49,185 bases of DNA from an uncultured Gammaproteobacteria bacterium (GCA_964580825.1 CAZOLB010000003.1:1-49185); one strand, 5' to 3'. Shown: positions 15,958 through 40,223, counted from the first letter of the stretch. Translations and numbers: made by a program. The notes: generated from the letters alone by a model not told the origin.

Positions 15958-15974
15958 ATTTTTTGTATTTAAGT

Positions 15975-16048
15975 TGGTCGGGGCACAGAGATTTGAACTC
16001 TGACTAAATCCTCCCAAAGGACTCGTGCTACCATTACACTATGCCCCG
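15975..16048 (-). tRNA. tRNA-Pro (anticodon UGG), CCA encoded
   Basis: Manual cloverleaf: acceptor CGGGGCA/TGCCCCG-A-CCA, anticodon arm AGTCC-TTTGGGA-GGATT (G37), T-arm CAGAG-TTCAAAT-CTCTG. Confidence 0.85.
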
Positions 16049-17722: not shown

Positions 17723-17749
17723 GTGGAATAAAAAATATTTTAGTATTTT

Positions 17750-17789
17750 AGATAAAGCGGTTTTAGTCGCGCGACTAAAACCGCTTTAT
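17750..17789. terminator. Perfect 40-nt palindrome between convergent thiI and the SpoIID-like gene (bidirectional terminator)
   Basis: GATAAAGCGGTTTTAGTCGC|GCGACTAAAACCGCTTTATC read directly. Confidence 0.7.
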
Positions 17790-17815
17790 CTATTAGATGT
17801 GTTTTAAGAATATTT

Positions 17816-20942: not shown

Positions 20943-22268
20943 ATGTTTTATATTTTATTATTTGCGGTTTACGGTTTTTTAATCTATTTTAAGCCGAAAT
21001 ACGGCTTGGCTTTGATTTTGATTTTTTTGCCGACTTATCAGATTAAGTTTCAAATTGCAGAGATTCCTTTTACTTTTTTGGAAATAATGATTTTAATTTC
21101 TTTTTTTTGTTGGGCGATTAAAAAATGGAAAAATCTGGCCGTCGGGCAATTGAGAGATTTATTGGACGATTGGTTTTTGCCAATTTGTCTTTGGTTGCTG
21201 GTATCGACCACGGCGGTATTTATCGCTCCTGACTTGCGGGCGGCCGCCGGCGTGTGGAGGGCGTATTTTGTCGAACCAATTTTATTTTTACTTGTTTTGT
21301 TGGATTTGGCGGAGAATAAAATGAATAAAGAAAGTATTTTGGATATTATTTTCTTTGGTTTAAGCGTTTCGGCGTTTGGCTGTTCAATTTGGGCGGTTTT
21401 GCAAAAATGGTTCGGTGGCGGAGTTTGGAGTATGGAGGTTTGGGGACAGCCCGAGATTTGGCGGGCGACTGGACCCTTTTCTCATCCGAATTTTTTAGGA
21501 TTGTATTTGGCGCCGGCGATTATTTTAGGAATTGGCATTTTGATCGCGAATGCCCGTAAAAATTTCGGACTTGTTATTTATTATTCATTATTTATTATTT
21601 TGACGTTTTGGGCGTTAGTTTTAACCCGTTCGGAGGGCGCGATGGTCGGCATGGTGGCCGGATTGCTGTTTTTGGGAATTATTTTTAAAAAGAGCAGAAA
21701 ATATGTTTTAATCGGACTGGCGGCGGCGATTTTATTAGTGGCGATTTGTCCGGCCTCTCGTTATTATATTTTGGAAAAAGCGTTTTTGCGGGATTTGTCA
21801 GGAGAATTTCGTTTGAACATCTGGTCTGGAGCGGTTTCTTTATTGGAAACTTCGCCTATTTTTGGAGTTGGTCTGGACGGTTATGAAAAATTGATTGTCG
21901 ATTATCAGGCAAATAATTTTGTCGCCGGCGGCGGCCAAACGTTTTTCGCCCCGATCCAGCCGTATCCACATAATTTATTTTTAGCTGTCTGGTTGGAGTT
22001 GGGATTGGCGGGAATGATTATTTTTATCTGGATTTTAATAAAATTTTTCAGACGGGGATTTAAGAATGTTAAAAATAATGCTATAATATCGTCAACGGCA
22101 ATGGGTATGATGGTTTGCGTTTTAGTTCATGGCTTGGTCGATACGCCTTATTTTAAAAACGACTTGGCAATTGTTTTTTGGCTGATTGTCGGATTAGGGA
22201 TAATACTTGGTAATTTAAAAAAGGACGGAATGGTTAAAAAAGAATCATTGGCGCGTAGTAAAATATAA
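20943..22268 (+). CDS. O-antigen ligase / polymerase family (Wzy_C) membrane protein
   Basis: GPFSHPNFLGLYL, LTRSEGAMVG and GVGLDGYE are present in a polytopic protein. The ORF track starts at the TTG at 20925; the first ATG is at 20943. Confidence 0.75.
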   Translation: MFYILLFAVYGFLIYFKPKYGLALILIFLPTYQIKFQIAEIPFTFLEIMILISFFCWAIKKWKNLAVGQLRDLLDDWFLPICLWLLVSTTAVFIAPDLRAAAGVWRAYFVEPILFLLVLLDLAENKMNKESILDIIFFGLSVSAFGCSIWAVLQKWFGGGVWSMEVWGQPEIWRATGPFSHPNFLGLYLAPAIILGIGILIANARKNFGLVIYYSLFIILTFWALVLTRSEGAMVGMVAGLLFLGIIFKKSRKYVLIGLAAAILLVAICPASRYYILEKAFLRDLSGEFRLNIWSGAVSLLETSPIFGVGLDGYEKLIVDYQANNFVAGGGQTFFAPIQPYPHNLFLAVWLELGLAGMIIFIWILIKFFRRGFKNVKNNAIISSTAMGMMVCVLVHGLVDTPYFKNDLAIVFWLIVGLGIILGNLKKDGMVKKESLARSKI

Positions 22269-23883
22269 TATTATAGTGATTTTTTGGAGACGTGGCTGAG
22301 GGGCTGAAAGCGGCAGTTTCGAAAACTGCTATGCCCGCAAGGGCATCGGGGGTTCGAATCCTCCCGTCTCCGCCAGATGTCCTACTTTGAACCTGAGAGA
22401 TTGCAAGGGTTTTCGAGCCTTTTGGAGGTTCTTGCCCAGCATCATTCAGGTCCATTAGAACATCAAAGACTGGCGTCCATATAGGCGTCAGTTTTTGATT
22501 TTTGACGGTAAAACCATCAAAGCAAAGTTTGATCAGCGTCCTCTTTTGGTACGTGCCGCTGGCCTTAAATACCCGATCCGCGTGATCGGTAAAATCCAAA
22601 AGCTCATTAAACTTTTGCACGAATTTGTCCGATTTACCCTCGAGCTCTGCCAAACGACCCTGATACATTTCCTTCTCTTTTAAAAGCTCGTCCTGAATCT
22701 TTATAAAGACCTCGGCATCAATGATGCGTTTCGAGCGATCCATGACGATGTTCCGGATCTGCTGTTGAACCCGAACCAGCTCATGCTTGAGACTACTGCG
22801 TTCTTTTTCTTCATTGGAAAGACGCTCTTGCGCGAAATGCTGGAAATACGCATCCAACACCTTCTTAAACTTTAATGGCATGTGAACGCGAGAAAGGTGG
22901 GTAGCCACCTGATCCTCAACGGTTTCCCAACGGATATATTTGCGTTCGGTGCAATTTTTTTCGAGCCAGTGAGTACATCCATAGTAAAGATGGCCTTTTT
23001 GAGTTTGGCCGCATAACATCGAGCCACACACCGCGCACCTCATGAATCCCGAAATCGGATAGACATGTTTCCTTGTGCGATCGGCATAGTGATTGTGCTG
23101 TTCGATTATCTCCTGTACATCATCGAACGCTTTCTTGGTGACGATCGAGGGAAAGTTTGCCTGACAGGTAGCCGATCTGGTTTTTACCAAACCGTAGTAG
23201 ATCGTGTTCTGAAGCATCCTCTCGATATTTTTCTTGGTCACCCGTTTGGCGTTTTTTGTTTTCAAACCTCGTTTAGCCAGTTCATCCGCAAGCGTGTAAT
23301 AAGAATATTTGCCGGTGGCATACAAATTAAAAGCCATTTTGACGTAGGGTGCCCGGATGGTATCAACGATCAGCGATTTTGTTTTCTTATCATTTAAATA
23401 CCCGATAGGCGCCACGCCAGGGAACCGACCTCGCTCCACGGCCTCTTTAAGGCCTTTCCTGACCTCCCAGCTGATATTCTGGGATGTCCATTGAGCGATT
23501 GAGGACATGATGTTCTCGACGAGCTCTCCGGAAAAAGATTCGTCAAATTGCTCGACCACCGAGATCAACCGAACATCGTGCTTTTTGAGCATCATTTTGA
23601 TGGCCGCATAGTCGGCGACGTTGCGACACATACGATCAAGTTTGTGCATTAAAATAACGTCAACCTTAGAATCAGTCTTTGCCCGGTGAAGCATTTTTTG
23701 AAGCTGAGGACGTTCGACCGTCCGGGCCGATTCACCCTTCTCCTCGTAGACACCGTCCGGCAGAAGATTCCAATGATGATCCATGCCGTATTTTTGGCAC
23801 GCCTTGACCTGCACCGGAATACTCAATTCTCGCTCAGCCTGGCGAGTGGTAGAGACGCGGCCGTAGATTAAATAGTTAGTCAT
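22234..23883 (-). CDS. Large serine recombinase (integrase); the 3' end reads antisense through tRNA-Ser
   Basis: The N-terminal resolvase motif is YGRVSTTRQ. A recombinase domain, the zinc ribbon CAVCGSMLCGQ...YYGCTHW and a coiled-coil are present. Residues after about 502 (SGGDGRIRTPDALAG...) are the antisense translation of the tRNA. Confidence 0.85.
   Translation of the reverse strand: MTNYLIYGRVSTTRQAERELSIPVQVKACQKYGMDHHWNLLPDGVYEEKGESARTVERPQLQKMLHRAKTDSKVDVILMHKLDRMCRNVADYAAIKMMLKKHDVRLISVVEQFDESFSGELVENIMSSIAQWTSQNISWEVRKGLKEAVERGRFPGVAPIGYLNDKKTKSLIVDTIRAPYVKMAFNLYATGKYSYYTLADELAKRGLKTKNAKRVTKKNIERMLQNTIYYGLVKTRSATCQANFPSIVTKKAFDDVQEIIEQHNHYADRTRKHVYPISGFMRCAVCGSMLCGQTQKGHLYYGCTHWLEKNCTERKYIRWETVEDQVATHLSRVHMPLKFKKVLDAYFQHFAQERLSNEEKERSSLKHELVRVQQQIRNIVMDRSKRIIDAEVFIKIQDELLKEKEMYQGRLAELEGKSDKFVQKFNELLDFTDHADRVFKASGTYQKRTLIKLCFDGFTVKNQKLTPIWTPVFDVLMDLNDAGQEPPKGSKTLAISQVQSRTSGGDGRIRTPDALAGIAVFETAAFSPSATSPKNHYNIIFYYAPMILF
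22286..22375 (+). tRNA. tRNA-Ser (anticodon CGA), long variable arm, CCA encoded
   Basis: Acceptor GGAGACG/CGTCTCC-G-CCA, anticodon arm GCAGT-TTCGAAA-ACTGC, variable arm TATGCCCGCAAGGGCAT, T-loop TTCGAAT. Confidence 0.9.
22381..22393. repeat. Left terminal inverted repeat (candidate P' arm of attL)
   Basis: CCAGAT-GTC-CTACTTTGAACC; the reverse complement pairs with 26188-26202. Confidence 0.55.
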
Positions 23884-23974
23884 AGTTTTATAAAATGTTT
23901 ATTATTTTTTGACCTTTATTTAATAAATACTTCTTTAAAATAGCGGCAGGGCTCTTTGGGAGCCCTGTTGTTCG

Positions 23975-24700
23975 CTAATATTTTTTTATGTGGTATACCA
24001 GCCGGCCTAGCATCTTCGACTCCTTGAGATGGTAGGTTTTTTTGAATCCTTCCGTCTCCGGCCGAAGTTCTAAGTGGTCGCCTCGTTCATGATAGTAAGT
24101 CATGACCGGTCCGTCTGGTGTTTCCATGATCACGATGTCACCATTTTTCGGCTTGGCGTCCGCGTCGAGGATGACGAAGTCGCCGGCAAGTATCCCGGCA
24201 TCCGGTAAAAGCAAATCGGATACCCGGAGTCCGAATGGCCGATGACCGCTGGGAATTCCATCCTGTGGCATAAAAACGAATTCATTTGCTTCTTTCAAAC
24301 GAGCGTCGAGATTATCCGAGGGGATCGCCTTCAACACCGGAACCTTGTAGTGGTCGTCGACAGAAAATGTTTTTTTCAATTCCTCCAATCCTTGTTCCAT
24401 CCTGCTGGCCGCTTCGTGCACACGTTTCTCACCAACCTCTTTGATGTTGAATTTATAATTCGTCGATATGCTGACCTTTTGAATTTTTGTTTCAGCCCAT
24501 CGCTTGTTCAACTCCTCATCCGAAACACGATAGGCCTTGGCCAAAATGGCCAGCTGTTTTTGAGATGGCATCCGGGTCCCGTTCTCCAGCTGGCTGATAT
24601 AGCTCGACGAAAAACCGAGACGATCCGCGAGCTCTTTGATCGTCCATCCGTTCGTTTCTCTTTGCTGTTTTAGAAACAGCCCAAATGACATAAATGGCAT
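23975..24700 (-). CDS. CI/LexA-like repressor (XRE HTH + S24 peptidase-like C-terminal domain)
   Basis: The HTH reads WTIKELADRLGFSSSYISQLENGTRMPS. The C-terminal beta-domain reads AGILAGDFVILDADAKPKNGDIVIM and resembles S24 autopeptidases. Confidence 0.75.
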   Translation of the reverse strand: MPFMSFGLFLKQQRETNGWTIKELADRLGFSSSYISQLENGTRMPSQKQLAILAKAYRVSDEELNKRWAETKIQKVSISTNYKFNIKEVGEKRVHEAASRMEQGLEELKKTFSVDDHYKVPVLKAIPSDNLDARLKEANEFVFMPQDGIPSGHRPFGLRVSDLLLPDAGILAGDFVILDADAKPKNGDIVIMETPDGPVMTYYHERGDHLELRPETEGFKKTYHLKESKMLGRLVYHIKKY

Positions 24701-24769
24701 ATTTTTGTGTGTTTAAGCTTATCCACTCCTTACGACCATCTTAATATACAATAGCAAAATTGTAAAGAA

Positions 24770-24827
24770 TAAGCAATTATGCTTATCCACACCCTCTATG
24801 TTTGACGAATTAAGCAAAAATGCTTAA
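24770..24827. promoter_or_regulatory. Divergent switch region: two 16-bp palindromic operators plus a sigma70-like promoter for the Cro-like gene
   Basis: TAAGCA-ATTA-TGCTTA at 24770-24785 and TAAGCA-AAAA-TGCTTA at 24811-26 within TTAAGCAAAAATGCTTAA (24810-24827). TTGACG (24802-07), N17, TAATAT (24825-30) overlaps the second operator. GCTTATCCAC is repeated at 24717-26 and 24781-90. Confidence 0.65.
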
Positions 24828-24859
24828 TATGATTATAGAGGTCTATTAGCGAATCAACT

Positions 24860-25066
24860 ATGAAAAAAACACCGACCAACGTACGCCTAAGAGATCTTCG
24901 GATCAAGAAGGGGCTGACGCAATACCAGCTCGCCCGGATTCTCGGCTTCCGGCACAACACCGCAATCAGCCGATATGAGACCGGCCGGAAGCGGCCAAAT
25001 TTGGAAACCGCCCAAAGGATTGCCCTCGCGCTTGGATCAAAAGTCGAGGAAGTCTTTTTGCCGTGA
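24860..25066 (+). CDS. Cro/XRE-family HTH protein
   Basis: 68 aa with the HTH KGLTQYQLARILGFRHNTAISRYETGRKRP. It is divergent from the CI-like gene. Confidence 0.8.
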   Translation: MKKTPTNVRLRDLRIKKGLTQYQLARILGFRHNTAISRYETGRKRPNLETAQRIALALGSKVEEVFLP

Positions 25067-25116
25067 GTGTGAGGTCAATAAAAGTGTGAGGTCACTCTTA
25101 TGAACTACCGCACCAC

Positions 25117-25395
25117 ATGTCGAAGCCAACAAAGGACGAGGAAGCTCTCATTGAGCTTACCAAGGGCGCTCTCGCCGACGTTCTCGGTCGTGAGCCGACC
25201 AAGCAAGAAGTTTGGAAAGTCCACGCCGGCTTCAAGCGCATGGCATTCATGCTGTTGGAGCACTTAGATCACATCAAAAAGTATGAAAACCAAAATCCTG
25301 ATCAAGAGACTCACCCGGACGATTTGGAAACGGATGACCAAAAAACCGCTCACCCGGAGGGAACTCTTGGCGAGGAGGGAGAACCTCTTGAGTAA
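25117..25395 (+). CDS. Hypothetical protein (acidic C-terminal tail)
   Basis: 92-aa ORF inside the element with no recognisable motif. Its last third overlaps a second ORF in another frame. Confidence 0.4.
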   Translation: MSKPTKDEEALIELTKGALADVLGREPTKQEVWKVHAGFKRMAFMLLEHLDHIKKYENQNPDQETHPDDLETDDQKTAHPEGTLGEEGEPLE

Positions 25396-25495
25396 TTTCA
25401 CCATTCGAGAACTTGAAAATCCGACTATCCGAAGGGACTTCTGCCGAGCGATGGACAACATCGACCGGGCACTGCCCAAAGCCCGGGAATGGTAG
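25283..25495 (+). CDS. Hypothetical small basic protein (alternative or overlapping frame)
   Basis: 70-aa Arg/Lys-rich ORF overlapping 25117..25395. I cannot tell which frame is expressed in the overlap. Confidence 0.3.
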   Translation: MKTKILIKRLTRTIWKRMTKKPLTRRELLARRENLLSNFTIRELENPTIRRDFCRAMDNIDRALPKAREW

Positions 25496-25595
25496 ATAGC
25501 CCCTTACTCTCCCCTCAATGGCGCCAGACGTGAAGGGAGGAATAAGGCGCGATCTCGGCCGAGGTCGACGGGGCACGCCTTTATTTTTCGTGGCC

Positions 25596-26051
25596 ATGTC
25601 GGATGAAAAAATAAAAGTTAGGGATCTGCGGAATGGCGATTGGTATTGGATCAGTAAAGTCTTGCTCGATGAGTACGGCGGCAAGATCAAACCGATCGGC
25701 ATTGCCGTTTACAACTGCCTGGCTGAACACGCTAACCAGGAGGGTTTTTGTTTTCCGTCCCACAAACATATCGCCGATAGGATCGGCGCGAGCATCTCAA
25801 GCGTGCAACGAGGCATCCGACAAATGATAAAGCTTGGAATAATCCGCAAAGGCCGCCGCCGATATTCCAATGTGTATTACCTGTTGAAATTAGACCGGTC
25901 AGATAGACCGAACTCGAACAAGACCAGTCAGTCAGACCGGCACATCGGTCATACAGACCGGTCAGATCGGTCTGTGGGAACTACTAACAAGAATAAAGAA
26001 AAAGAATTTATTAAAAAGAATTACGGATCGAATAAAAAAAACTGTGGATAA
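25596..26051 (+). CDS. HTH-domain replication-initiator-like protein
   Basis: CFPSHKHIADRIGASISSVQRGIRQMIKLGIIRK matches the 'FPS...LA...G.S..TV.R.I..L...G.I' winged-HTH signature common in plasmid/phage replication proteins. The start is set at MSDEKIK; the ORF track starts at 25518. Confidence 0.6.
   Translation: MSDEKIKVRDLRNGDWYWISKVLLDEYGGKIKPIGIAVYNCLAEHANQEGFCFPSHKHIADRIGASISSVQRGIRQMIKLGIIRKGRRRYSNVYYLLKLDRSDRPNSNKTSQSDRHIGHTDRSDRSVGTTNKNKEKEFIKKNYGSNKKNCG
25892..25974. repeat. Iteron-like AGACCG(GTCAGAT) repeats inside the 3' end of the replication-type gene
   Basis: AGACCGGTCAGAT at 25892-25904, AGACCG at 25905-10, AGACCAGTCAGTCAGACCGG at 25921-40, and the inverted pair CAGACCG-GTCAGAT-CGGTCTG at 25954-74. 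Confidence 0.7.
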
Positions 26052-26070
26052 CTTTAAAGAACTAAAGTCG

Positions 26071-26175
26071 ATGCTCGCAGAGAAAATGTCTATTGAAGGG
26101 ATAAAGATTAAAATTATAGATGGCAAGAAGCATATGTGGTCTGGAAAACAGTGGGTAGCAGTCGATGACGCTTAG
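26071..26175 (+). CDS. Possible small ORF (34 aa; 43 aa if it starts at the GTG at 26044)
   Basis: MLAEKMSIEGIKIKIIDGKKHMWSGKQWVAVDDA. It is below the ORF-track cutoff, and the GTG overlaps the preceding stop. It would be the last gene before the right end of the element. Confidence 0.3.
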   Translation: MLAEKMSIEGIKIKIIDGKKHMWSGKQWVAVDDA

Positions 26176-26187
26176 ACTATTTTTAAT

Positions 26188-26202
26188 GGTTCGGGAAGTA
26201 GG
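26188..26202. repeat. Right terminal inverted repeat (candidate P arm of attR)
   Basis: GGTTCGGGAAGTAG-GTC-GAACCCGAGCG; the inverted partner is 22381-22393. GC falls back to host level to the right. Confidence 0.55.
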
Positions 26203-26386
26203 TCGAACCCGAGCGTTTAATTCGTTATCAACAATTAATTTATGTTTAAAGATTTCTGTTATTGAGACCCGAAGTAACGATGGTTTTAATTTTATCTGCC
26301 ATCTCGTTGCTAGGTTCTCTTTTGCCAGCCGGATGGACTAAATTATCTCGGGCTGGAAACAGAGAACCTAATAAAATAATAAATAT

Positions 26387-26605
26387 ATGAGCAAGGATCA
26401 ATTGGCGGTGGGCAATTGTCCGCATTGTACAAAAATTATATTTAAGGATGCCGTGTTTAACTCCGAGGGATCTTTTTGTATGCGTTGTCCACATTGCGAC
26501 AAACTACTTAAAGTCATAATAAAAAGGAAAATTGAAATCATTATATCCCCCTGCAGTGATTGCAAAAACGACAAAGAGTGTACTTCTAATAAATATTTGA
26601 CATAG
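26387..26605 (+). CDS. Small zinc-ribbon protein
   Basis: 72 aa with CPHC...CPHC plus CSDC...C. No obvious RBS, so coding status is uncertain. Confidence 0.45.
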   Translation: MSKDQLAVGNCPHCTKIIFKDAVFNSEGSFCMRCPHCDKLLKVIIKRKIEIIISPCSDCKNDKECTSNKYLT

Positions 26606-26630
26606 TATAATTATGGGTGTATACTCATAA
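26597..26630 (+). promoter_or_regulatory. Near-consensus sigma70-type promoter with an overlapping 20-bp imperfect palindrome, upstream of the metal-cluster operon
   Basis: TTGACA (26597-602), N17, TATACT (26620-25). TTATGGGTGTATACTCATAA (26611-30) matches its own reverse complement at 16 of 20 positions. Confidence 0.55.
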
Positions 26631-26687
26631 TAGGCAATGTACAAAAGGTCGATTGCCAACCATTATTAACTATTTAACAACAAATAT

Positions 26688-26948
26688 ATGCCAAGACAAA
26701 ATGGTACAGGTCCGTTAGGATTTGGCGCCGGAACCGGCAGAGGCATGGGTCCTTGCGGCGGTGGTATGGCCTATGGTCGCCGAGGGAGTGGCCGCGGATT
26801 GGGCTGGAGAAGATTTTGGGGATATTATCCCGCTCCTACCCCTTCAAAAAAAGATGAAGCCGAAATGCTTTCAGAAGAGGCAGAAATCATGGAAGAAGAA
26901 TTGAAGAATATCAAATCCCGATTAGCCGAGCTTAAAGGTCAAAAATAA
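26688..26948 (+). CDS. DUF5320-type protein (Gly-rich N-terminus, C-terminal coiled coil)
   Basis: MPRQNGTGPLGFGAGTGRGMGPCGGG...EEAEIMEEELKNIKSRLAELK matches the characteristic MPRGDGTGP.G.GP.TGRG..C architecture. Confidence 0.8.
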   Translation: MPRQNGTGPLGFGAGTGRGMGPCGGGMAYGRRGSGRGLGWRRFWGYYPAPTPSKKDEAEMLSEEAEIMEEELKNIKSRLAELKGQK

Positions 26949-26954
26949 ATAACC

Positions 26955-27009
26955 GAAATTATTTTCTATTGAAATTATTTTCTATTAATACTTTTATAGA
27001 AAATAATTT
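26955..27009. repeat. 16-mer GAAATTATTTTCTATT as a perfect tandem pair plus one inverted copy
   Basis: Direct copies at 26955-70 and 26971-86. The inverted copy ATAGAAAATAATTT is at 26996-27009. Copy 2 and the inverted copy can form a 14-bp AT-rich hairpin followed by TTTT. Confidence 0.8.
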
Positions 27010-27042
27010 TGGCATATTAATTTATTATTAATATCTAATAAT

Positions 27043-27327
27043 ATGATGTCACAAATACCAATCAATCTGGAGAAAATCAATAAAACCGATTTGGATATGG
27101 AAATATTGAGAATCGGAGTGATAGCGGAATTGGATGCTATAAATTTATATGAACAAATGTCTGCCATAGCGCAAGATGAAAATATAAAGAAAATGCTTTT
27201 AGATATTGCTAAAGAAGAAAAGGCGCATGTGGGAGAATTTCAAGCCTTGTTATTAAATAGAGACAAAGAACAAGCCGCAGAGCTGGAAGCGGGCAAAGAA
27301 GAAGTTAAAAAAGAGGTTGGCGAATAA
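27043..27327 (+). CDS. Mini-ferritin-like protein of the EncFtn / ferritin-like four-helix type
   Basis: IAELDAINLYEQM...DIAKEEKAHVGEFQALL parallels the E..E....Y / EE..H di-iron ligand pattern of encapsulated-ferritin-like proteins. 94 aa. Confidence 0.6.
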   Translation: MMSQIPINLEKINKTDLDMEILRIGVIAELDAINLYEQMSAIAQDENIKKMLLDIAKEEKAHVGEFQALLLNRDKEQAAELEAGKEEVKKEVGE

Positions 27328-27377
27328 ATTAAAATAAGAGGTTTTGAGTCATTTAATAAAAATTAAAATCATAAATT

Positions 27378-28103
27378 ATGAGATTAAACAATAAAGTAGC
27401 TATAGTAACCGGGTCAACCCTGGGTATTGGCAAGGGAATTGCAGAGAAGCTTATTAATGAAGGAGCAAAAGTTGTTTTTTCCGATATAAATGGTGACGAT
27501 TCTTTGGTTGCGGGATTTGGAGGAAATGCCATATTTGTAAAATGCGACGTATCAAAAATGGAAGAAGTGGAAAATTTAATTAATCAAGCCGTTACACATT
27601 TCGGCCAGTTGGATATATTAGTTAATAATGCCGGTATTTATCCTTTTGTGCCTTTTGCAAAAATGACTGAGGCCGATTGGGATAGGGTCATGTCTGTTAA
27701 TTTAAAAAGTGTTTTTTTATGTTCTCAAGCCGCGGCTAAAGTAATGCCAGAAGGCGCAAGAATAATAAATATTTCTTCGATTGCCTCTTTTGTTGGTTTT
27801 TCCGGCCTGGTTCACTATTGTGCTTCGAAAGGTGGAATTAGTGGCATGATCAGAGCCTTAGCTTTGGAATTGGCAGATAGAAAGATTACGGTTAATGCTG
27901 TTGCTCCGGGTGCGATTGAAACTCCGGGCGCCAATCAAGGTTTAACTGATGAATCGAGAAAGCAGACTATAGCCATGATACCGCTATCGCGCATGGGTCA
28001 GCCGGAGGATATTGCGGGAGCAGTTGCTTTTTTAGCTTCTGATCAAGCCAGCTATATTACTGGTCAGACTATTATAGTTGATGGCGGATGGACATTGAGA
28101 TAA
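27378..28103 (+). CDS. SDR-family oxidoreductase (FabG-like)
   Basis: TGSTLGIGKGIA is the cofactor motif, with NNAG and the catalytic YCASKGG. Confidence 0.85.
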   Translation: MRLNNKVAIVTGSTLGIGKGIAEKLINEGAKVVFSDINGDDSLVAGFGGNAIFVKCDVSKMEEVENLINQAVTHFGQLDILVNNAGIYPFVPFAKMTEADWDRVMSVNLKSVFLCSQAAAKVMPEGARIINISSIASFVGFSGLVHYCASKGGISGMIRALALELADRKITVNAVAPGAIETPGANQGLTDESRKQTIAMIPLSRMGQPEDIAGAVAFLASDQASYITGQTIIVDGGWTLR

Positions 28104-28137
28104 GCTCGGTTTGCTAATTTAAATAACAATCAAAAAT

Positions 28138-28461
28138 ATGAAAATAGCAATAAGCTCAATCGGAAAAAGCCTTGATGACAATATTGCTGAGGTTTTTGGG
28201 CGGTGCCCCTATTTTATCATTGTTGATATTGAAAAAAGTGGGATTAAGGAAAATGAAATTATTAAAAATATCGGCGATAGCCAGATGAGCGGTGCGGGTA
28301 TGGCGGCCGCTAAAATGATAGCTGAAAAAGGAGTCAATATTGTTATTGCAAAGAATGTGGGTCCAAGAGCATTAGATGTTTTAAAGCAATTCAATATTGA
28401 AATAGTTGAAGCTAATGGAAAAATTAGTAAGGCATTGCAAGATTTTATTAAAAAAATTTAA
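28138..28461 (+). CDS. NifX/NifB-C-terminal-type (dinitrogenase Fe-Mo cofactor family) cluster-binding protein
   Basis: 107 aa. FGRCPYFIIVD...GAGMAAAKMIAEKGVNIVIAKNVGPRA is the typical family pattern. Confidence 0.75.
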   Translation: MKIAISSIGKSLDDNIAEVFGRCPYFIIVDIEKSGIKENEIIKNIGDSQMSGAGMAAAKMIAEKGVNIVIAKNVGPRALDVLKQFNIEIVEANGKISKALQDFIKKI

Positions 28462-28462
28462 T

Positions 28463-28831
28463 ATGAAAAATTTAAAAATCGTTATTCCTACAGACGGTCA
28501 GAACGGCTTAGATGAAAAAGTAGCTGATCATTTTGGCCGTTCCCTAACTTATACTTTTCTTGATGAGAAAGGTGAAATTATTGAGATAATAAAAAATACA
28601 AGCGAGCATATGGGAGGGCAAGGATTACCACCTGAATTAATGAAACAGCACGGAGCTGATATTTTACTGTGCCGCGATCTCGGTCCTAAGGCAATTAGCT
28701 TATGCGCGGAATTAGATATAGACGTTTATACTTGTCAGGCAGAAACGGTCAAAGATATTTTTAAAATGTGGCAGAGTAATAAACTTAAAAAAGCGGGCGC
28801 AGAAGATGCTTGTGAACATCATAAAATATGA
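28463..28831 (+). CDS. Second NifX/NifB-C-terminal-type cluster-binding protein
   Basis: MKNLKIVIPTDG...HFGRSLTYTFLD...GADILLCRDLGPKA. The start is set at the ATG at 28463, 1 nt after the preceding stop. The C-terminal tail reads CEHH. Confidence 0.7.
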   Translation: MKNLKIVIPTDGQNGLDEKVADHFGRSLTYTFLDEKGEIIEIIKNTSEHMGGQGLPPELMKQHGADILLCRDLGPKAISLCAELDIDVYTCQAETVKDIFKMWQSNKLKKAGAEDACEHHKI

Positions 28832-29688
28832 GAATTGCCATCACTGGCGGCAAGGGCGGAACAGGCAAATCGATGGTTGCCACTTCGTTGGCCGTCCTGT
28901 TTGCTAAAAATAAAAAAACACTCTTGGTTGATGCCGACGCCGAATGCCCTAATGACCATTTATTGTTGGCGGTTAAATTGAAAAAAGCATCGATAGTTAA
29001 TCAAACTATTCCTAAATGGAATTTTAAAAAATGCGTTAAATGCGGATCTTGCGCTTTGGCTTGCCAAAAAAACGCTATCGTTTTTATTAAAGACAGATAT
29101 CCGGCTTTTGTGAAAGACGTTTGCATCGGTTGTAAGGCCTGTATTTCTTCTTGCTCTTTCGGTGCGATAACTGAAGATAAGAAAGAGATCGGCAAGATTT
29201 ATGCCGGTAAGAATTATAATATTAGTCTAATTTCCGGGGAGCTGAAACTTGGGGAATTAGCATCCGGCGAAGTGGTAGCCGAGGTTAGAAAATATGCGGA
29301 AAAAATCAATGAGCAGTTGAAAGCAGACATTATTTTGATAGATTCGGCGGCCGGAGTCGGTTGTCCGGTGATTGCCTCTTTAGTAGGCACTGATTATATT
29401 GTGGCAGTAACCGAGCCCACGCCGTCTGCCCTACATGATTTAAAGCGCGTATTGCATCTGGCCAAACATTTTAAAATAAAACACGGTATTATTATTAATA
29501 AATATGATCTGTCAAAAAGTTATTGTTTGCAGATTGAAAAATTTGCCACAAAAAATAAAATCTCGATTATGGGCAAAATTCCTTATCGCCAAGATTTTGT
29601 TGATTCAATGATAAAAATGAAGCCAGTAGCAGAAATAAACCCGGATTATCAAAAATTATTTTTAGATATTATTAAACAAATAAGATAA
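28828..29688 (+). CDS. MinD/ParA-superfamily P-loop ATPase with an inserted 2x[4Fe-4S] ferredoxin domain
   Basis: The deviant Walker A is GGKGGTGKS. The Cys clusters are CVKCGSCALAC and CIGCKACISSC. The start overlaps the previous stop by 4 nt. Confidence 0.85.
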   Translation: MRIAITGGKGGTGKSMVATSLAVLFAKNKKTLLVDADAECPNDHLLLAVKLKKASIVNQTIPKWNFKKCVKCGSCALACQKNAIVFIKDRYPAFVKDVCIGCKACISSCSFGAITEDKKEIGKIYAGKNYNISLISGELKLGELASGEVVAEVRKYAEKINEQLKADIILIDSAAGVGCPVIASLVGTDYIVAVTEPTPSALHDLKRVLHLAKHFKIKHGIIINKYDLSKSYCLQIEKFATKNKISIMGKIPYRQDFVDSMIKMKPVAEINPDYQKLFLDIIKQIR

Positions 29689-29696
29689 ACAATCAG

Positions 29697-30746
29697 ATGA
29701 AAGAAAAAATTGCGACAATTTCAATATTAGCCAATATGATTTTAGCCGGAGGCAAGATTACCGTCGGCATTTTTTCCAATTCAGCCGCGATATTGGCGGC
29801 CGGGTTAGATTCATTTGCTGATATTTTTTCTTCTACTATCAGCTATATTGGAATTAAAATATCCGGCAAGCCGGCTGATGAGGAACATCCATATGGACAT
29901 TATAAATTTGAGGTTTTGGGAGGCGCTATTATTACTTTGATAATTCTGGCGACTGGTATCGGGATAATTTACGATGCTTGTCAAAATTTTTTTAAACCGG
30001 CGAATATAGCTATTAGTTATTTATCGTTTGGTGTAATGATTTTTTCAGTGTTAATTAATGAAGCAATGTCGAGACTGAAAATTCATTATGGCAAAAAAGA
30101 AGGTTCAGTCAGCCTGCTTTCAGATGGAGTCCATTCAAAAATTGATGTTTATACATCGATAGCGATTTTAGTAGGATTATTTTTCACTAAATACTGGATT
30201 TATGCTGATGCAGTTTTGGCCTTACTAATGGGAGTCTATATTATTAAAGAAGCGTTTACGATCGGTAAGGAAGCGATCAGTTCGCTTTTGGATGTTTCCG
30301 CTGGAGCGGAAATAGAGGCGAAGATAAAATCAATTGCCAAATGGCAAAATATTGAAATTAATAATTTAAAAACCCAGAAAAAAGGATTGATAATTACAGC
30401 CAATTTGGAAATCAAATTGCCGAATAATTTGAATGTTGAAGAGGCGGCTAAAATATCCGATAAGTTAAGACAACAGCTGGTTGAAAAAATTGATAATCTG
30501 CAATATGTGGTTATTCAGATTTCCAGCCATAGTATTGAAACCAATTTTTATAAGCCGGAATTCGGGCAAGGTTTCGGCTGGCAAAGAAAAGGCAAATTTA
30601 AAGAAAAAATTAAAGAAGCAACTGGCCGAGGGCCGGAGGGTAATTGCGTCTGTGAAAAATGCGGCTATAAAACACCGCATCAAAGAGGCATTCCCTGCTC
30701 AAACTTAAAATGTCCAAACTGCGATATAAATTTAAAAAGAGAATAA
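29697..30746 (+). CDS. Cation diffusion facilitator (CDF) metal exporter with a C-terminal Gly-rich/zinc-ribbon extension
   Basis: Six-TM CDF core (DSFADIFSS, HPYGHYKFE, LSDGVHSKIDV) plus a cytoplasmic domain. The extra tail reads GRGPEGNCVCEKCGYKTPHQRGIPCSNLKCPNCD. Confidence 0.8.
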   Translation: MKEKIATISILANMILAGGKITVGIFSNSAAILAAGLDSFADIFSSTISYIGIKISGKPADEEHPYGHYKFEVLGGAIITLIILATGIGIIYDACQNFFKPANIAISYLSFGVMIFSVLINEAMSRLKIHYGKKEGSVSLLSDGVHSKIDVYTSIAILVGLFFTKYWIYADAVLALLMGVYIIKEAFTIGKEAISSLLDVSAGAEIEAKIKSIAKWQNIEINNLKTQKKGLIITANLEIKLPNNLNVEEAAKISDKLRQQLVEKIDNLQYVVIQISSHSIETNFYKPEFGQGFGWQRKGKFKEKIKEATGRGPEGNCVCEKCGYKTPHQRGIPCSNLKCPNCDINLKRE

Positions 30747-30765
30747 TTAAATTAATACAAATATT

Positions 30766-31053
30766 ATGGCCAGACCAGCACGTTGTTTATGCAGAGGAAT
30801 AAAATTTAATCCTGATATTGTTTATTTTAAACCGCAAGGCGTACCAATTCACAATCTGCAAGTTGTTGAACTTACAATGGAAGAAATTGAGGCATACCGT
30901 TTGCGCCATATTAATGATTTGGAGCAAAAGGAAGCGGCCGGGAAAATGCATACCTCCCAAAGCACATATCAAAGAATACTTTATTCGGCTTATAAAAAAA
31001 TTGCCGATGCCTTAATTAATGGCAAGGCTATAAAAATTATTAAACATGAATAA
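30766..31053 (+). CDS. DUF134 / UPF0251 family putative DNA-binding protein
   Basis: MARPARCLCRGIKFNPDIVYFKPQGVP...LTMEEIEAYRL...QKEAAGKMHTSQSTYQRIL..A.KKIADALINGKAIKI matches the family end to end. Confidence 0.85.
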   Translation: MARPARCLCRGIKFNPDIVYFKPQGVPIHNLQVVELTMEEIEAYRLRHINDLEQKEAAGKMHTSQSTYQRILYSAYKKIADALINGKAIKIIKHE

Positions 31054-31744
31054 TATGCTTTTAGAAGTTAGGAATCTAAATGTTACTTTAAACAAAGAAA
31101 AGATACTGGAAAATTTATCTTTTCAAGTTGAACCAGGAGAAATTTTAACCATTTTGGGTCCGAATGGCGCCGGGAAAAGTGTGCTTTTAAAAACTCTTTT
31201 GGGTTTTTTGCCATATGAAGGAAGCATTATTTGGCATCAAAAAATGAAAATCGGTTATTTGCCACAAGGTTTAAATCAGTTAAAGGTTAAAGATTTTCCG
31301 CTAACAGTACAGGATTTTTTTGCATTAAAAAATACCGCTCTAACATCCGAAGAAATTATTGAATTTTTGCATCTGGTAGGATTAGAAAAAGACGTTCTTT
31401 TTAAAACAGCTGGCAGTTTGTCGGGAGGACAATTCCAAAGGATGCTCGTGGCCTGGGTGCTGATTTCTCATCCAGACGTTATATTTTTTGATGAACCGAC
31501 GACAGGGATAGATATTGGCGGAGGAGAAACAATTTATTCTCTTCTACATACTATCCGGGAAAAAGAAAAATTAACAATTTTTCTCGTAACGCATGACCTG
31601 CATATCGTATACAAGCATTCTACCAGTGTATTATGTTTAAGCCGCAAGGGGCACAACTGTTTTGGAGCACCAAAAGAAATATTAAATACAGAGACGCTGG
31701 AGCAAATTTTTGGCACGGAAATTAAATTTTATGAACATCATTAA
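31046..31744 (+). CDS. Metal (Zn/Mn/Fe-type, ABC-3 system) ABC transporter ATP-binding protein
   Basis: Walker A is GPNGAGKS, the signature is LSGGQFQRM, and Walker B is IFFDEPT. It overlaps DUF134 by 8 nt. Confidence 0.85.
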   Translation: MNNMLLEVRNLNVTLNKEKILENLSFQVEPGEILTILGPNGAGKSVLLKTLLGFLPYEGSIIWHQKMKIGYLPQGLNQLKVKDFPLTVQDFFALKNTALTSEEIIEFLHLVGLEKDVLFKTAGSLSGGQFQRMLVAWVLISHPDVIFFDEPTTGIDIGGGETIYSLLHTIREKEKLTIFLVTHDLHIVYKHSTSVLCLSRKGHNCFGAPKEILNTETLEQIFGTEIKFYEHH

Positions 31745-31757
31745 TACATAAATAAAT

Positions 31758-32531
31758 ATGACATATCAGATTATCCTTACGTTAATAAGTGGGATTTTTA
31801 TAAGTGGAGTTGCTGGTTATCTCGGTACGTTAATGCTTTCAAAAAAAATGTCGGTGGTCGCCGGCCCACTTGCTCATTTAGCTCTACCCGGAGTAGCCCT
31901 GGCACTTATCTATGGATTTAGCATCTCATTGGGAGCGTTCCCATTTGTCATTTTAGGTGCATTCTTAATTTGGCTTTTAGAAAAAAGAACAAAATTACCA
32001 ATGGAAAATTTAGCCGCGATTATTTTTGCATTCGGAGTTGGAACGGCACTTCTTATTCTGCCAATTGAGCAAGCAGAAGAGGCATTAATCGGGAATATTA
32101 CAAAAATAACCTTGTCAGAAACAATTATAACGGTTATCTTGAGTCTTCTCGTTTTTTATGTAGCAAAAAAGATTTATCAAAAAATAATGTTGATGAATAT
32201 TTATGAAGATTTGGCAGTAATAGAGGGAACTAATAAAAATTTATGTAATCTATTTTATCTATTAAGCATCGCTATGGTTGTCGCGTTGGGCGTTTATTTG
32301 GTAGGCGGGCTAATAACTGTTGCCCTAATTGCGATACCGGCGGCATCGGCAAAAAATGTAAGCAAAGGTTTGCATTTTTATAAAATTTCAGCAGTCGTTT
32401 TTGGGGTTATTTCAGCGGTCGCTGGAATTTTTATTGCCCGTTTTATTCATCTCCCAACCGGTCCTTTAGTAATTATTTCTGGCGTGGTATTGTTTTTGAT
32501 TACAGTAATTTTTCGCAAGCGATTATTCTAA
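31758..32531 (+). CDS. ABC-3 family metal transporter permease
   Basis: 257 aa with about 8 TM helices, directly after the ATPase. No substrate-binding protein gene is nearby. Confidence 0.75.
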   Translation: MTYQIILTLISGIFISGVAGYLGTLMLSKKMSVVAGPLAHLALPGVALALIYGFSISLGAFPFVILGAFLIWLLEKRTKLPMENLAAIIFAFGVGTALLILPIEQAEEALIGNITKITLSETIITVILSLLVFYVAKKIYQKIMLMNIYEDLAVIEGTNKNLCNLFYLLSIAMVVALGVYLVGGLITVALIAIPAASAKNVSKGLHFYKISAVVFGVISAVAGIFIARFIHLPTGPLVIISGVVLFLITVIFRKRLF

Positions 32532-32541
32532 TTTTTTAATT

Positions 32542-33294
32542 ATGCAACCAAAAATAAAAAAAGTTTTGCTGATTTTTTCTGGCAAAGGTGGCGTCGGTAA
32601 ATCTACGGTAGCCGTAAATTTGGCTATTGCTCTTGCCAAAAAAGGATTAAAGATTGGCTTACTTGATGCTGATATTCACGGTCCGAATTTAGCTCTAATG
32701 CTTGGAGCGCAAAATGGGGCAGTGTTCCCTTATGGTGAAAATCAAATCCTGCCGGTAGAAATAAGCAAAAATTTATCTTTAGTTTCTATCGCGTATTTTA
32801 TACCAAAGCTTGATACGCCGATAATTTGGCGAGGTCCGGCTAAGATGAAAATTATTGAAAGATTTGTTAAGGATGTAACTTGGGGCGATTTAGACTGGTT
32901 GATAGTCGATTCCCCTCCGGGTACAGGCGACGAACCTCTTTCTATAGCTCAACTCTTACCAAAAGCCGGTGCGATTATAGTTACCACTCCTCAAGATGTA
33001 TCTCTGCTTGATTCGAAAAAAGCCATAAATTTTGCTAGGGAGCTAAAATTAAAAATTCATGGTCTAATTGAAAATATGAGTGGACTAAGTTGCCCTCATT
33101 GCGGTAAAACGATCAACTTGTTTAAAAAGAATGGCGGATCAATAATTGCTAAACAGTATAAAATACCATTTTTAGGATCTATTCCAATTGATCCTGAAAT
33201 TGTTATTTCCGGAGATAGTGGGATTCCCGTGACAATGAATGAGAATTTCAAAATTTCAAAAATATTTTTAGAAATTGCAAATAAAATATTATGA
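32542..33294 (+). CDS. Mrp/NBP35 (ApbC-type) Fe-S cluster carrier ATPase
   Basis: SGKGGVGKSTVAVNLA, DSPPGTGDE and the CPHCG cluster-ligand motif are present. Confidence 0.85.
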   Translation: MQPKIKKVLLIFSGKGGVGKSTVAVNLAIALAKKGLKIGLLDADIHGPNLALMLGAQNGAVFPYGENQILPVEISKNLSLVSIAYFIPKLDTPIIWRGPAKMKIIERFVKDVTWGDLDWLIVDSPPGTGDEPLSIAQLLPKAGAIIVTTPQDVSLLDSKKAINFARELKLKIHGLIENMSGLSCPHCGKTINLFKKNGGSIIAKQYKIPFLGSIPIDPEIVISGDSGIPVTMNENFKISKIFLEIANKIL

Positions 33295-33695
33295 AAAATA
33301 GAACTATTATACCAACTATTTTATTTATTATCATTTTAATTTTTTCTTTTATAGCGTTTTCGCAAGAAAAAAGTAAAAACCAGCCAGAAATGATTGAGAT
33401 TACTAATCAAATATCTGAACAAGGTCAAATTATTCTTTTTTATAGTGACAATTGTCCGCATTGTAAAATAGTAGAAGATTATCTTAAGCAATATCAGATT
33501 GACAAAAAGATTTCTTTTGCTCAAAAGGAGGTTTATTATAATCAAAACAACACCAAAGAGCTTGAAATCAAAGCAAAAATTTGCGGATTGCCAACCGATT
33601 CAATCGGCGTGCCATTTCTGTGGGACGGGAAAAAATGTTTGATCGGCGATCAAAATATTATTGATTTCTTTAAACAAAAAACTAATGGGCGATAA
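33291..33695 (+). CDS. Membrane-anchored/secreted thioredoxin-like protein (CPHC)
   Basis: An N-terminal hydrophobic helix is followed by ILFYSDNCPHCKIVEDYL. It resembles the N-terminal domain of the 5358..6611 product. Confidence 0.7.
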   Translation: MKNRTIIPTILFIIILIFSFIAFSQEKSKNQPEMIEITNQISEQGQIILFYSDNCPHCKIVEDYLKQYQIDKKISFAQKEVYYNQNNTKELEIKAKICGLPTDSIGVPFLWDGKKCLIGDQNIIDFFKQKTNGR

Positions 33696-33696
33696 T

Positions 33697-34212
33697 ATGA
33701 AAAAAATATCAATTTATCTTTTATTTGTCTTTGCGATAAGTTTTCTTTTCGCCCAAAAAGCTTTGGCAGTTTGCCCAATTTGCACTATCGCCGTCGGCGC
33801 CGGAGTTGGACTTTCCCGCTGGCTGGGAATTGATGATGCAATAACCGGATTATGGGTTGGCGGATTTATTGTTTCTATGATTACTTGGACGGAGGGCTGG
33901 TTGGAAAAGAAAAATATCCACTTCAAAGGCAGAATTTTCGTCAATATTTTCGTTTACTACGCCTTGATTATTATTCCGCTTTTTTACTCCGGCATTATTG
34001 GCAATCCGCTAAATACTTTATGTGCCTGCGGATTGGATAAATTACTTTTTGGAATAATCGCAGGTAGTTTGGCTTTTTGGTTTGGCGCGAGCTGGTATTT
34101 TCATTTGAAAGAAAAAAATAACGGCCACGCTTATTTTCCTTTTCAAAAAGTCGTTATGCCAATTTTGCCACTTATAATTTTAAGCATAATTTATTATTTT
34201 CTAACCAAATAA
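33697..34212 (+). CDS. Hypothetical polytopic membrane protein with CPIC and CAC motifs
   Basis: The signal-like N-terminus MKKISIYLLFVFAISFLFAQKALA is followed immediately by VCPICTIAVGAGVG. About 4 further TM helices and LCACG are present. I recognise no family. Confidence 0.55.
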   Translation: MKKISIYLLFVFAISFLFAQKALAVCPICTIAVGAGVGLSRWLGIDDAITGLWVGGFIVSMITWTEGWLEKKNIHFKGRIFVNIFVYYALIIIPLFYSGIIGNPLNTLCACGLDKLLFGIIAGSLAFWFGASWYFHLKEKNNGHAYFPFQKVVMPILPLIILSIIYYFLTK

Positions 34213-34216
34213 TCAT

Positions 34217-34756: not shown

Positions 34757-34848
34757 AAAATGTTTTAAAAAAATATTAAGTTTTTTACTTTTTACATCTA
34801 AACCCAAATGATTGATGTTTGGATAATAACTAATTAAATAATATAACT

Positions 34849-35076: not shown

Positions 35077-35083
35077 ATTTAAT

Positions 35084-37015: not shown

Positions 37016-37035
37016 TTACTTACCATTTAAACACT

Positions 37036-38224: not shown

Positions 38225-38326
38225 AAATTACCTTATAAATTATTCATTAGTTTATTAGTGAGTTTTCTGGTATTGGTTCAATTACACCCCACTGTTCGTT
38301 TGACTTATATTTTTTAATAATATACA

Positions 38327-39641: not shown

Positions 39642-39651
39642 AAATCACATT

Positions 39652-40149: not shown

Positions 40150-40187
40150 GTGCCTATTTGGTCGAAAATTATGCACACCGGCGACTA

Positions 40188-40217: not shown

Positions 40218-40223
40218 AAAAAT

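Follow-up and report, generated by a model that had tools for sequence, protein, structure and literature searches.

A serine-recombinase core module at the 3′ end of a tRNA-Ser gene of a patescibacterium, probably heading a larger cargo island

The locus and its core block

The stretch of DNA analysed here, called the window at its full length of 49,185 nucleotides (GCA_964580825.1, CAZOLB010000003.1:1-49185, deposited as an uncultured Gammaproteobacteria bacterium), includes a tRNA-Ser(CGA) gene that is followed directly by a block of about 4.24 kb (22375-26611) coding for a large serine recombinase, a repressor, a Cro-like protein, a replication initiator and several small proteins. With a probability of about 0.6, this block is the module for integration, control and replication that forms the conserved core of a Patescibacteria-wide family of serine-recombinase islands. 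The family of mobile islands that carries it is apparently undescribed, and full-text literature searches returned no description of tRNA-Ser serine-integrase cores of this family.

The best named matches of the EF-G protein of the host belong to Patescibacteria (82% identity), and apart from itself no relative exceeds 83%. Judged by this protein, the host is a patescibacterium, a member of the candidate phyla radiation (CPR), as the initial annotation of the window had proposed. That annotation had also placed a rise in guanine plus cytosine (GC) content right after the CCA of the tRNA-Ser gene, and this agrees with the computed values, 0.39 in the left flank and 0.476 over nucleotides 22376-25975. 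The fall that it had located near 26.2 kb was instead computed at about 25976; from there to the end of the conserved unit (25976-26611, its last 640 nt) the GC content is 0.347, similar to that of the flank. The gene list of the annotation (serine recombinase, repressor, Cro-like protein, small open reading frames (ORFs) and an initiator with iterons) was borne out. The features of the block and its left junction are the following; a slash marks the 3′ terminus of the tRNA.

22286-22375, plus strand: tRNA-Ser(CGA) with encoded CCA end (ARAGORN, Rfam); T-arm, acceptor strand and CCA end are the putative host (B) half of the left junction
22370-22400, plus strand: left junction (attL) zone, CCGCCA/GAT at 22370-22378; the element-side arm (P′) is GATGTCCTACTTTGAACCTGAG
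22234-23883, minus strand: large serine recombinase, 549 amino acids (Pfam, PHROG)
23947-23967, minus strand: predicted terminator-like hairpin between the repressor and integrase genes (consensus scan)
23975-24700, minus strand: repressor, 241 amino acids, HTH_3 and S24-like C-terminal domain (Pfam)
24701-24859: divergent switch region, two palindromic operators AAGCA-N4-TGCTT at 24771-24784 and 24812-24825
24860-25066, plus strand: Cro-like helix-turn-helix protein, 68 amino acids (Pfam HTH_3, 1.9e-14), 71-94% identical in relatives
25117-25395, plus strand: conserved 92-amino-acid ORF, no Pfam or PHROG match, syntenic in all relatives
25518-26051, plus strand: lambda-O-like initiator, 177 amino acids, origin-binding winged-helix part only (Pfam HTH_36, 2e-9)
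25892-26040: putative origin, iterons followed by an AT-rich stretch, within the 3′ end of the initiator gene
26044-26175, plus strand: conserved 43-amino-acid ORF, 52-76% identity by tblastn in about half of the relatives
26188-26214: GC-rich hairpin TTCGGG...CCCGAG, whose 5′ half had been taken for a right inverted repeat
26311-26370: second hairpin (repeat I1), 23-nt arms 87% complementary, also seen by eye in L025, L045, L064, L065, L073 and other relatives
26387-26605, plus strand: zinc-ribbon ORF, 72 amino acids, two CPHC motifs, last conserved gene of the core
26597-26625, plus strand: strong sigma-70-like promoter TTGACA-17-TATACT (promoter scan), 11 of 12 matches, overlapping the zinc-ribbon stop codon and reading into a DUF5320 gene

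Distribution of the core

A scan of species-representative genomes found the cassette in 46 GTDB species genomes, mostly labelled Patescibacteria. The host labels include Parcubacteria/Paceibacterota and Azam-, Yonath-, Nomura-, Magasanik-, Vogel-, Kaiser- and Komeilibacteria, although some of these automatic labels look unreliable. By tblastn the order of the genes is kept in 36 loci (individual loci and contigs carry L numbers below): tRNA gene, integrase and repressor on one strand, then the Cro-like protein, the 92-amino-acid ORF, the HTH_36 initiator, in part the 43-amino-acid ORF, and the zinc-ribbon ORF on the other, the exception being L032, which has a different right part. The trio of recombinase, repressor and initiator singled out in the initial annotation is thus found well outside the window.

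The conserved core has a length of about 4.1-4.3 kb. Its GC content is 0.42-0.48 in nearly all relatives (range 0.36-0.51), while that of the left flanks of the hosts extends from 0.29 to 0.65. The integrase of the window is 90% identical to that of L029, a locus with a flank GC content of 0.50; compared with an EF-G identity of at most 83%, this suggests that the core is more conserved than its host.

Recombinase, switch and replication genes

The recombinase matched the Pfam families Resolvase (9e-30, residues 6-153), Recombinase (1.2e-15) and Zn_ribbon_recom (2.5e-7), as well as PHROG 95 (integrase, 1e-95), and the catalytic motif Y-x-R-V-S-T-x-x-Q (RVST) is invariant in 24 members of the family. 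By its domains and active-site motif it is a bona fide large serine recombinase. The integrases of the family form 38 protein clusters at 62-83% identity to that of the window, with the next match at 34%; one of the protein-search matches was named Parcubacteria.

The repressor showed Pfam matches to HTH_3 (2e-16) and, just above the cutoff of 23.3 bits, to Peptidase_S24 (1.1e-5, 25.5 bits). It had been called CI/LexA-like, a description that holds for the fold but not for the catalytic residues: in a MAFFT alignment with E. coli LexA and lambda CI, a leucine is found at the position of S119 and a tyrosine at that of K156, an assignment that depends on the alignment, and no Ala-Gly cleavage site was found. 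The repressors of relatives have leucine or other residues at the S119 position. Since the Ser/Lys dyad and the Ala-Gly site are lacking, RecA-stimulated self-cleavage is unlikely, and induction through an anti-repressor or another signal is more likely. The two palindromic operators overlap promoter-like sites detected by a promoter scan, 24766-24738 (minus strand) for the repressor and 24802-24830 (plus strand) for the Cro-like protein. They are 41 bp apart and occupy the same positions in 35 relative loci, with a spacing of 40-42 bp that is mostly 41.

The initiator matched PHROG 428, 391, 270 and 1032, annotated as "replication initiation (O-like)", with values from 6e-15 to 3e-13. Inside its gene there are at least four iterons of the AGACCGGTCAGA type at 25892-25973, followed by an AT-rich stretch with a GC content of 0.25 over 25976-26060. 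This DNA is nearly invariant in relatives. In the distant L064 a different iteron (AGATAGCTCA) is found at the same place, the iteron type switching along with the initiator type. An O-like initiator with intragenic iterons and an AT-rich region has the make-up of a lambda-style origin.

The genes for the integrase, the CI-like repressor, the divergent Cro-like protein and the O-like initiator, the last with an origin inside it, stand in the classical lambdoid order, and one member of the family is on a 55.9-kb contig classed as viral by IMG/VR. These features could be expected if the block were the lysogeny and early-replication module of a possibly defective CPR prophage, with virion genes lost or farther away. 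Several data speak against such an origin, which we consider quite improbable. Families of capsid, terminase, portal or tail proteins were found neither in the window from 22.4 to 41.3 kb nor in the 7 kb past the core on the IMG/VR contig; the Pfam and PHROG matches in 22.4-44 kb and the annotated right flanks of relatives include no virion, packaging or lysis genes; and the annotated right flanks of L024, L025, L029, L030 and L033 hold defence or metal-resistance genes. Furthermore, only one close member of the family was found among 2.9 million IMG/VR contigs. That member, L092 (IMG/VR uncultivated viral genome 3300025154_002045, 6161-6982), is at the end of its contig; to the right of its core there are genes for a tyrosine recombinase, a PD-(D/E)XK nuclease and a 929-amino-acid PHP/SMC-like ATPase.

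The tRNA target and the left junction

The integrase gene abuts the 3′ end of a tRNA gene in 45 of 45 relatives. The occupied gene is a tRNA-Ser with anticodon CGA, GCT, GGA or TGA, or, in three loci, a tRNA-Asp(GTC). All 45 occupied tRNAs have the junction sequence CC[A/C]G[A/G]T, which in 43 of them is CCGCCA/GAT and in the other two a single-base variant of it. Across relatives, the sequence as far as tRNA position 70 differs according to the host, and invariance begins with CCGCCAGAT. The initial annotation had placed the junction at a GTC trinucleotide shared by both ends; this placement is left without support, as the invariance marks CCGCCA/GAT at the 3′ terminus of the tRNA.

Unoccupied genes help to locate the point of exchange. 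Four unoccupied tRNA-Ser genes in genomes of the family have CCGCC followed by G (two), CCGAA (one) or an encoded CCA (one). Overall, the CCA is encoded in at most 25 of 58 unoccupied tRNAs, compared with 44 of 45 occupied ones. When the occupied tRNA-Ser(CGA) of L047 was compared with the unoccupied one of L061, which lies in a syntenic tRNA cluster, the sequences diverged directly after CCGCC. The crossover is most likely at C74-C75 (22373-22374), and the element would contribute the A of the CCA end plus GAT. An alternative crossover at the AT found at 22377 and again at 26610, considered since two assemblies end at 26611, was dropped in favour of C74-C75 on the basis of the family invariance and the unoccupied tRNAs; no known single-nucleotide polymorphism accounts for the assembly breaks at 26611 and 26187. 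Breaks of Logan contigs at 22345 and 22374 were also considered as signs of excision and are best explained by a 30-mer common to another tRNA-Ser gene.

The reading frame of the integrase crosses the junction, which is spanned by residue 503, and continues with residues 504-549 and the stop codon on the strand antisense to the tRNA and the sequence 5′ of it. As a consequence, the last 46 residues or so and the stop codon are encoded by the host. Nearly all integrases of the family end in ...KVQxWxSGGxGxIRT, the antisense translation of the tRNA 3′ end, so that the element-side half-site would lie within the 3′ coding region of the integrase gene. Among the members of the integrase clusters no alternative C-terminus that would mark a circular form was found.

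A second copy of the 24-nt tRNA 3′ end, allowing up to three mismatches, was not found in the 49-kb window. This absence fits serine integrases, whose attP and attB have just a short central dinucleotide in common and whose attL and attR are hybrids that lack long direct repeats; no attR or attP was recognised here.

Two further sequences related to tRNA 3′ ends were observed. Nucleotides 24041-24072, inside the repressor gene, match 22353-22384 (tRNA 3′ end and junction) at 26 of 32 positions, with a maximum of 20 in shuffled sequences. The stretch encodes LELRPETEGFK, which is kept in one subtype of the repressor, and in relatives it matches the local tRNA at 17-23 of 32 positions. The resemblance is probably due to chance, a pseudo-site being possible. 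In L064 (reverse-complemented, 154-300) an intact tRNA-Asp gene and a terminator are followed, about 100 nt later, by an exact second copy of the last ~19 nt of the tRNA (AGTCCCTTCCATCCCGCCA), and it is this second copy that joins the element (/GACGTCCAA). Such a duplication suggests that insertions at this site were nested or came one after another.

The right limit of the core

The initial annotation described the block (22379-26204, 3.8 kb) as a complete element with imperfect inverted repeats at its ends, next to the GTC trinucleotide, repeats whose joining would give a palindromic attP. Both strings exist (CCTACTTTGAACC at 22381-93 and GGTTCGGGAAGTAGG at 26188-202), the GC content is high only to about 25.98 kb, the sequence GGTTC...GTAGG...CC at 26188-26209 loosely mirrors the left arm, and one contig (L007) ends at 26187. 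However, the strings can be aligned only by means of a 2-nt indel, and as repeats they are at chance level. When the 25 nt that follow the CCA were aligned locally, in inverted orientation, with 22.5-27 kb, the highest score was 9.0, compared with a mean of 9.55 for shuffled sequences. Of the shuffles, 85% did at least as well, and the highest-scoring position was not 26188. The right string is half of the hairpin at 26188-26214, which is found at the same internal position in 26 relatives and shows compensatory changes, one stem pair being U-A in 11 and C-G in 10 of them. The GTAGG within this hairpin is specific to the window and is missing from L029 despite an identical left end. The region past the hairpin and the zinc-ribbon ORF go with the cassette in 36 loci with varied tRNAs and hosts, and the invariance of the left junction marks the CCA end and not the GTC. 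A unit with these limits is scarcely credible. What stands of the description is that of an integrated, non-viral module with integrase, switch and replication genes; the right limit at 26204 does not, since the hairpin and the zinc-ribbon ORF are conserved as well, as far as about 26611.

The zinc-ribbon ORF is present in the 36 loci that reach that far, irrespective of the tRNA or the host flank, L032 being again the exception. Since it is always part of the cassette, the core extends from 22375/6 to about 26611. The start codon of the zinc-ribbon gene comes 15-25 nt after the large, conserved second hairpin (26311-26370; AGGTTCTC..TTGCCAGCC ... GGGCTGG..AGAGAACCT), which is preceded by a conserved motif resembling a mini-ORF (ATGATCGAGGATTTCTGA in relatives) and may serve to control translation or transcription.

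About 60-110 nt past the zinc-ribbon stop codon, most relatives (for example L029, L031, L033 and L050) have a terminator hairpin and then a highly conserved 26-nt motif, GTTTGTTTGCCCCTKKGGCGAGCTTT, beyond which the sequences diverge into variable cargo. Part of the motif resembles an inverted tRNA 3′ end (TGGCGAG). A recombination site, an operator and a point of cargo exchange are possible functions of this motif; as a mirror of the left arm it was rejected, since it does not co-vary with the type of left arm. L045 has the same overlap of stop codon and promoter, reading into DUF5320, as the window.

The DNA to the right of the core

Beyond the core, the window contains the following regions.

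26612-41300: probable remainder of the island, consisting of the metal cluster and the AbiEii/RadC/Dam block (Pfam), with an extent that is a likely estimate
26688-38224: metal-homeostasis cluster (DUF5320, EncFtn-like, FeMo-co-type, MinD/Fer4, CDF efflux, DUF134, ABC-3, FeoAB, YibE/F)
38327-41248: AbiEii/RadC/Dam block (Pfam)

The right flanks are associated with the core and appear to be something other than ordinary host sequence. Left and right flanks of relatives cluster incongruently: right flanks fall into few classes, and each class is found beside different tRNAs and left flanks. The classes comprise defence genes of HerA/NurA/PDDEXK/DruA/MmeI type, a Cu-ATPase with a multicopper oxidase, and the metal cluster common to the window and L045. 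In pairwise blastn comparisons the left flanks shared 0%, the cores 100% at 75-92% identity and the right flanks part of their length at 72-92%. The GC content of right flanks tracks that of the core and not that of the host; in L043, for instance, it is 0.65 on the left, 0.48 in the core and 0.44 on the right. Homology between the right flanks of the window and L045 extends in pieces to 37.76 kb at about 75%, which equals the identity of their cores, while their left flanks are unrelated.

The block at 38298-41145 (an AbiEi-like/AbiEii pair, RadC and a Dam-type methylase) is 78% identical to nucleotides 12427-15255 of L032 (reverse-complemented), and a RadC gene is likewise found after the cores of L049 and L053. 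As observed in L032, this block is situated 1.3 kb past a truncated core, and the methylase of the window is apparently shorter than its counterpart there, which is followed by a ParB-like extension.

The tetranucleotide composition of 26.7-38.2 kb differs from that of the left flank (p = 0.004, Mann-Whitney), while that of 41.4-49.2 kb does not (p = 0.5). As the composition becomes host-like again only near 41.3 kb, the core probably heads an island of about 19 kb, from 22375 to about 41.3 kb, a conclusion that has moderate support. The two regions that removal of such an island would make adjacent both encode proteins of O-antigen-ligase type. The word "minimal" in the initial annotation is accordingly doubtful: the comparative and compositional data suggest that the block is the tRNA-proximal module of a larger cargo island.

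Several observations weigh against the reading of the block as the head of a mobile island. The terminator and the 26-nt motif are absent from the window, as the motif is from L045, so that the copy found here is possibly a truncated or an immobile one. The putative cargo deviates modestly in tetranucleotide composition, with a range that overlaps that of the host, and the DNA of the right flank could consist of islands accreted separately at a tRNA hot spot. No statistically supported attR was found at 26.2, 26.6 or 41.26 kb; a candidate at 41259-41279 (CTCAGGTTAAAC...CCAG) was rejected, having the wrong spacing and a p value of about 0.2. Neither an empty site nor a circular junction nor a presence/absence polymorphism was found for this element, and with attR missing as well, the integrity attributed to it in the initial annotation cannot be demonstrated. 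A gapped tRNA-to-flank pattern had no match in the metagenome collection of the Joint Genome Institute (JGI), a result that is uninformative: a control expected to be present, a 41-nt species-specific pattern inside known JGI contigs (such as L008), was also unmatched, and negatives from this collection are untrustworthy. Finally, L065 has its best inverted match to the element-side arm 60 nt past the zinc-ribbon stop codon, with CC after it. It is the best within 9.3 kb, although its score is not significant, and it hints at an element made of the core only.

Such an element would be an integrative replicon of 4.2 kb (22375 to about 26611), with the DNA to its right consisting of older hot-spot islands or host sequence and with a divergent or decayed attR. 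In addition to the match in L065, this possibility draws on the sharp end of conservation past the zinc-ribbon ORF, mostly with the terminator and the 26-nt motif, on the two independent assemblies that break at exactly 26611, and on the host-like GC content of the right flank in the window. It is difficult to reconcile with right flanks that are common to genomes with unrelated left flanks at an identity equal to or above that of the core, and with a right-flank GC content that follows the core rather than the host. Nor does the 26-nt motif behave as the end of the element: no consistent crossover dinucleotide comes after it, it shows no co-variation with the type of left arm, and the window lacks it altogether. 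We consider the core-only replicon unlikely, though worth keeping in mind, and favour the core as the head of a larger island.

State of the element in the sampled population

All 13-15 contigs of the species of the window (99.7-100% identical, from at least 8 samples) carry the core and the whole right-hand region, the island appears fixed in the sampled population, and no sign that this copy is active was found. Exact-protein look-ups of flanking genes (Wzy_C, DUF5320, Wzy/TPR) returned only occupied sites, and the predicted attP was not found in viral contigs. Contigs L004 and L006 end at exactly 26611 and L007 at 26187, and none of the three, which come from three samples, enters the DUF5320 flank. 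All three carry the integrase variant 23048 C>T. In these samples an alternative continuation past 26611 or 26187 must exist.

Other features of the window were noted. A perfect 44-nt palindrome at 17749-17792 (TAGATAAAGCGGTTTTAGTCGC/GCGACTAAAACCGCTTTATCTA), located between the genes for ThiI and SpoIID, is probably a bidirectional terminator; it gave rise to a hairpin artefact at the start of L004. Some strains of the species of the window contain a second, unrelated serine-recombinase element at the CCA end of a tRNA-Pro gene (L002 13398-15331, L011 1-1912, L015 1-116 and L090 1-1106). Its integrase has 507 amino acids and is 22% identical to the one described here. In the window, nucleotides 15974-15980 at the 3′ end of tRNA-Pro(TGG) (minus strand) are the empty site for this element, and its attB, attL and attR are all available, with a 7-bp common core, CGACCAA (tRNA positions 71-76 plus 1). 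The integrase ORF of this element also enters the tRNA, and its far end has a gene with a transglutaminase core.

Proposed mechanism and significance

The data are consistent with the following scheme. The recombinase would join a site on the element to the 3′ terminus of the tRNA-Ser gene, most likely at C74-C75, with the T-arm, acceptor strand and CCA end acting as the host half-site. As the half-site of the element would lie inside the 3′ end of the integrase gene, the integrated reading frame would enter the tRNA, and the element would supply the A of the CCA plus GAT. Control would be exerted at the two palindromic operators between the divergent promoters by the Cro-like protein and a non-cleavable CI-like repressor. 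Upon a flip of this switch, the rightward operon would be expressed, comprising the Cro-like protein, the 92-amino-acid ORF, the O-like initiator, the 43-amino-acid ORF and, past the hairpin, the zinc-ribbon protein. The initiator would bind the iterons inside its own gene, and the excised circle would replicate. The directionality factor would be one of the small proteins. The sole candidates, which we name by way of speculation, are the 43-amino-acid ORF, the zinc-ribbon protein and the 92-amino-acid ORF, a candidate excision/directionality factor. Candidate routes of transfer are transformation or a helper phage; relaxase, coupling-protein and type IV secretion system families of Pfam were found neither in the core nor among the precomputed Pfam matches of the genes in 22-44 kb.

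In its most general form, the proposal is that recombinases distributed across Patescibacteria have as their chromosomal site the near-universal end of tRNA-Ser and tRNA-Asp genes (T-arm, acceptor strand and CCA), write the final A of the CCA, located 3′ of the crossover at C74-C75, and borrow a stop codon, and that the 4.2-kb core serves as a portable platform by which defence and metal-resistance cargo moves between the reduced genomes of ultra-small bacteria. We put this forward tentatively, at slightly less than even odds.

To our knowledge, mobile elements of CPR bacteria (Patescibacteria) have barely been described. For the study of gene exchange in these tiny, host-dependent cells the cassette offers a widespread handle, with its presence in 46 species genomes, a conserved target, a readable switch and origin, and defence or metal cargo. 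It is unusual for a large serine recombinase to target the 3′ end of a tRNA gene, and so is the presumed placing of a recombination site within its own coding end; the integrase is possibly of interest for genome-engineering mining because its target sequence is conserved across bacteria.

Comparison with known systems

Large serine integrases carry out a crossover with a 2-bp stagger, and the direction of the reaction is set by a separate factor, a mechanism also expected here. The classical ones target protein-coding genes, while tRNA 3′ ends are the usual targets of tyrosine integrases. The integrase described here resembles those of Bxb1, phiC31, A118/LI, TP901-1 and SPbeta (SprA) in having the Resolvase and Recombinase domains and the zinc ribbon, followed by a coiled coil, together with the RVST motif. 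It differs in the identity of its family to anything outside, which is at most 34%, in its target, the 3′ terminus of a tRNA gene, and in the probable location of the element half-site in its own 3′ coding end with a stop codon derived from the host.

The switch and replication genes are similar to the cI/cro/O region of lambda in the divergent arrangement of repressor and Cro, in the palindromic operators over both promoters and in an initiator gene that contains iterons and an AT-rich region. Unlike the lambda repressor, the one found here has neither the Ser/Lys dyad nor the Ala-Gly site. Compared with lambda O, the initiator of 177 amino acids is devoid of the C-terminal part that recruits the helicase loader, and there is no P-like gene.

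With phage-inducible chromosomal islands (PICIs) and phage satellites, the core has in common an integrase, a master repressor with a divergent Cro-like protein, an initiator with an origin, the absence of virion genes and the small size. PICIs typically use tyrosine integrases. In contrast to them, the core has no detected terS, capsid-remodelling or helper-interference family.

In islands of the Islander type, which have tyrosine integrases, the tRNA gene is regenerated from a long identity block, and the displaced fragment is found at the far end (PMC4383910). The element described here differs from them in its serine recombinase and in that the tRNA 3′ end occurs just once in the window; it shares with them the integration at a tRNA 3′ end, the adjacent integrase gene and the defence or metal-resistance cargo.

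The tycheposons of Prochlorococcus are small integrative elements of streamlined genomes, with replication genes, swappable cargo and tRNA sites, and they give rise to islands; 910 of their 937 integrases are tyrosine recombinases and the rest are large serine recombinases (bioRxiv 10.1101/2020.12.28.424599). The present family belongs to another phylum, has an unrelated integrase family, lacks a flanking repeat of the tRNA 3′ end in the window, carries a CI/Cro-type switch with an O-like initiator and not primase/helicase modules, and showed no members with capsid or PICI-like features. On the other hand, both have an integrase gene next to a tRNA gene, a replication module and variable cargo that travels along, a likeness that for the window is of moderate strength. 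If the interpretation given here is correct, the family would be a tycheposon-like system of CPR bacteria and a source of integrases with a conserved and predictable target.

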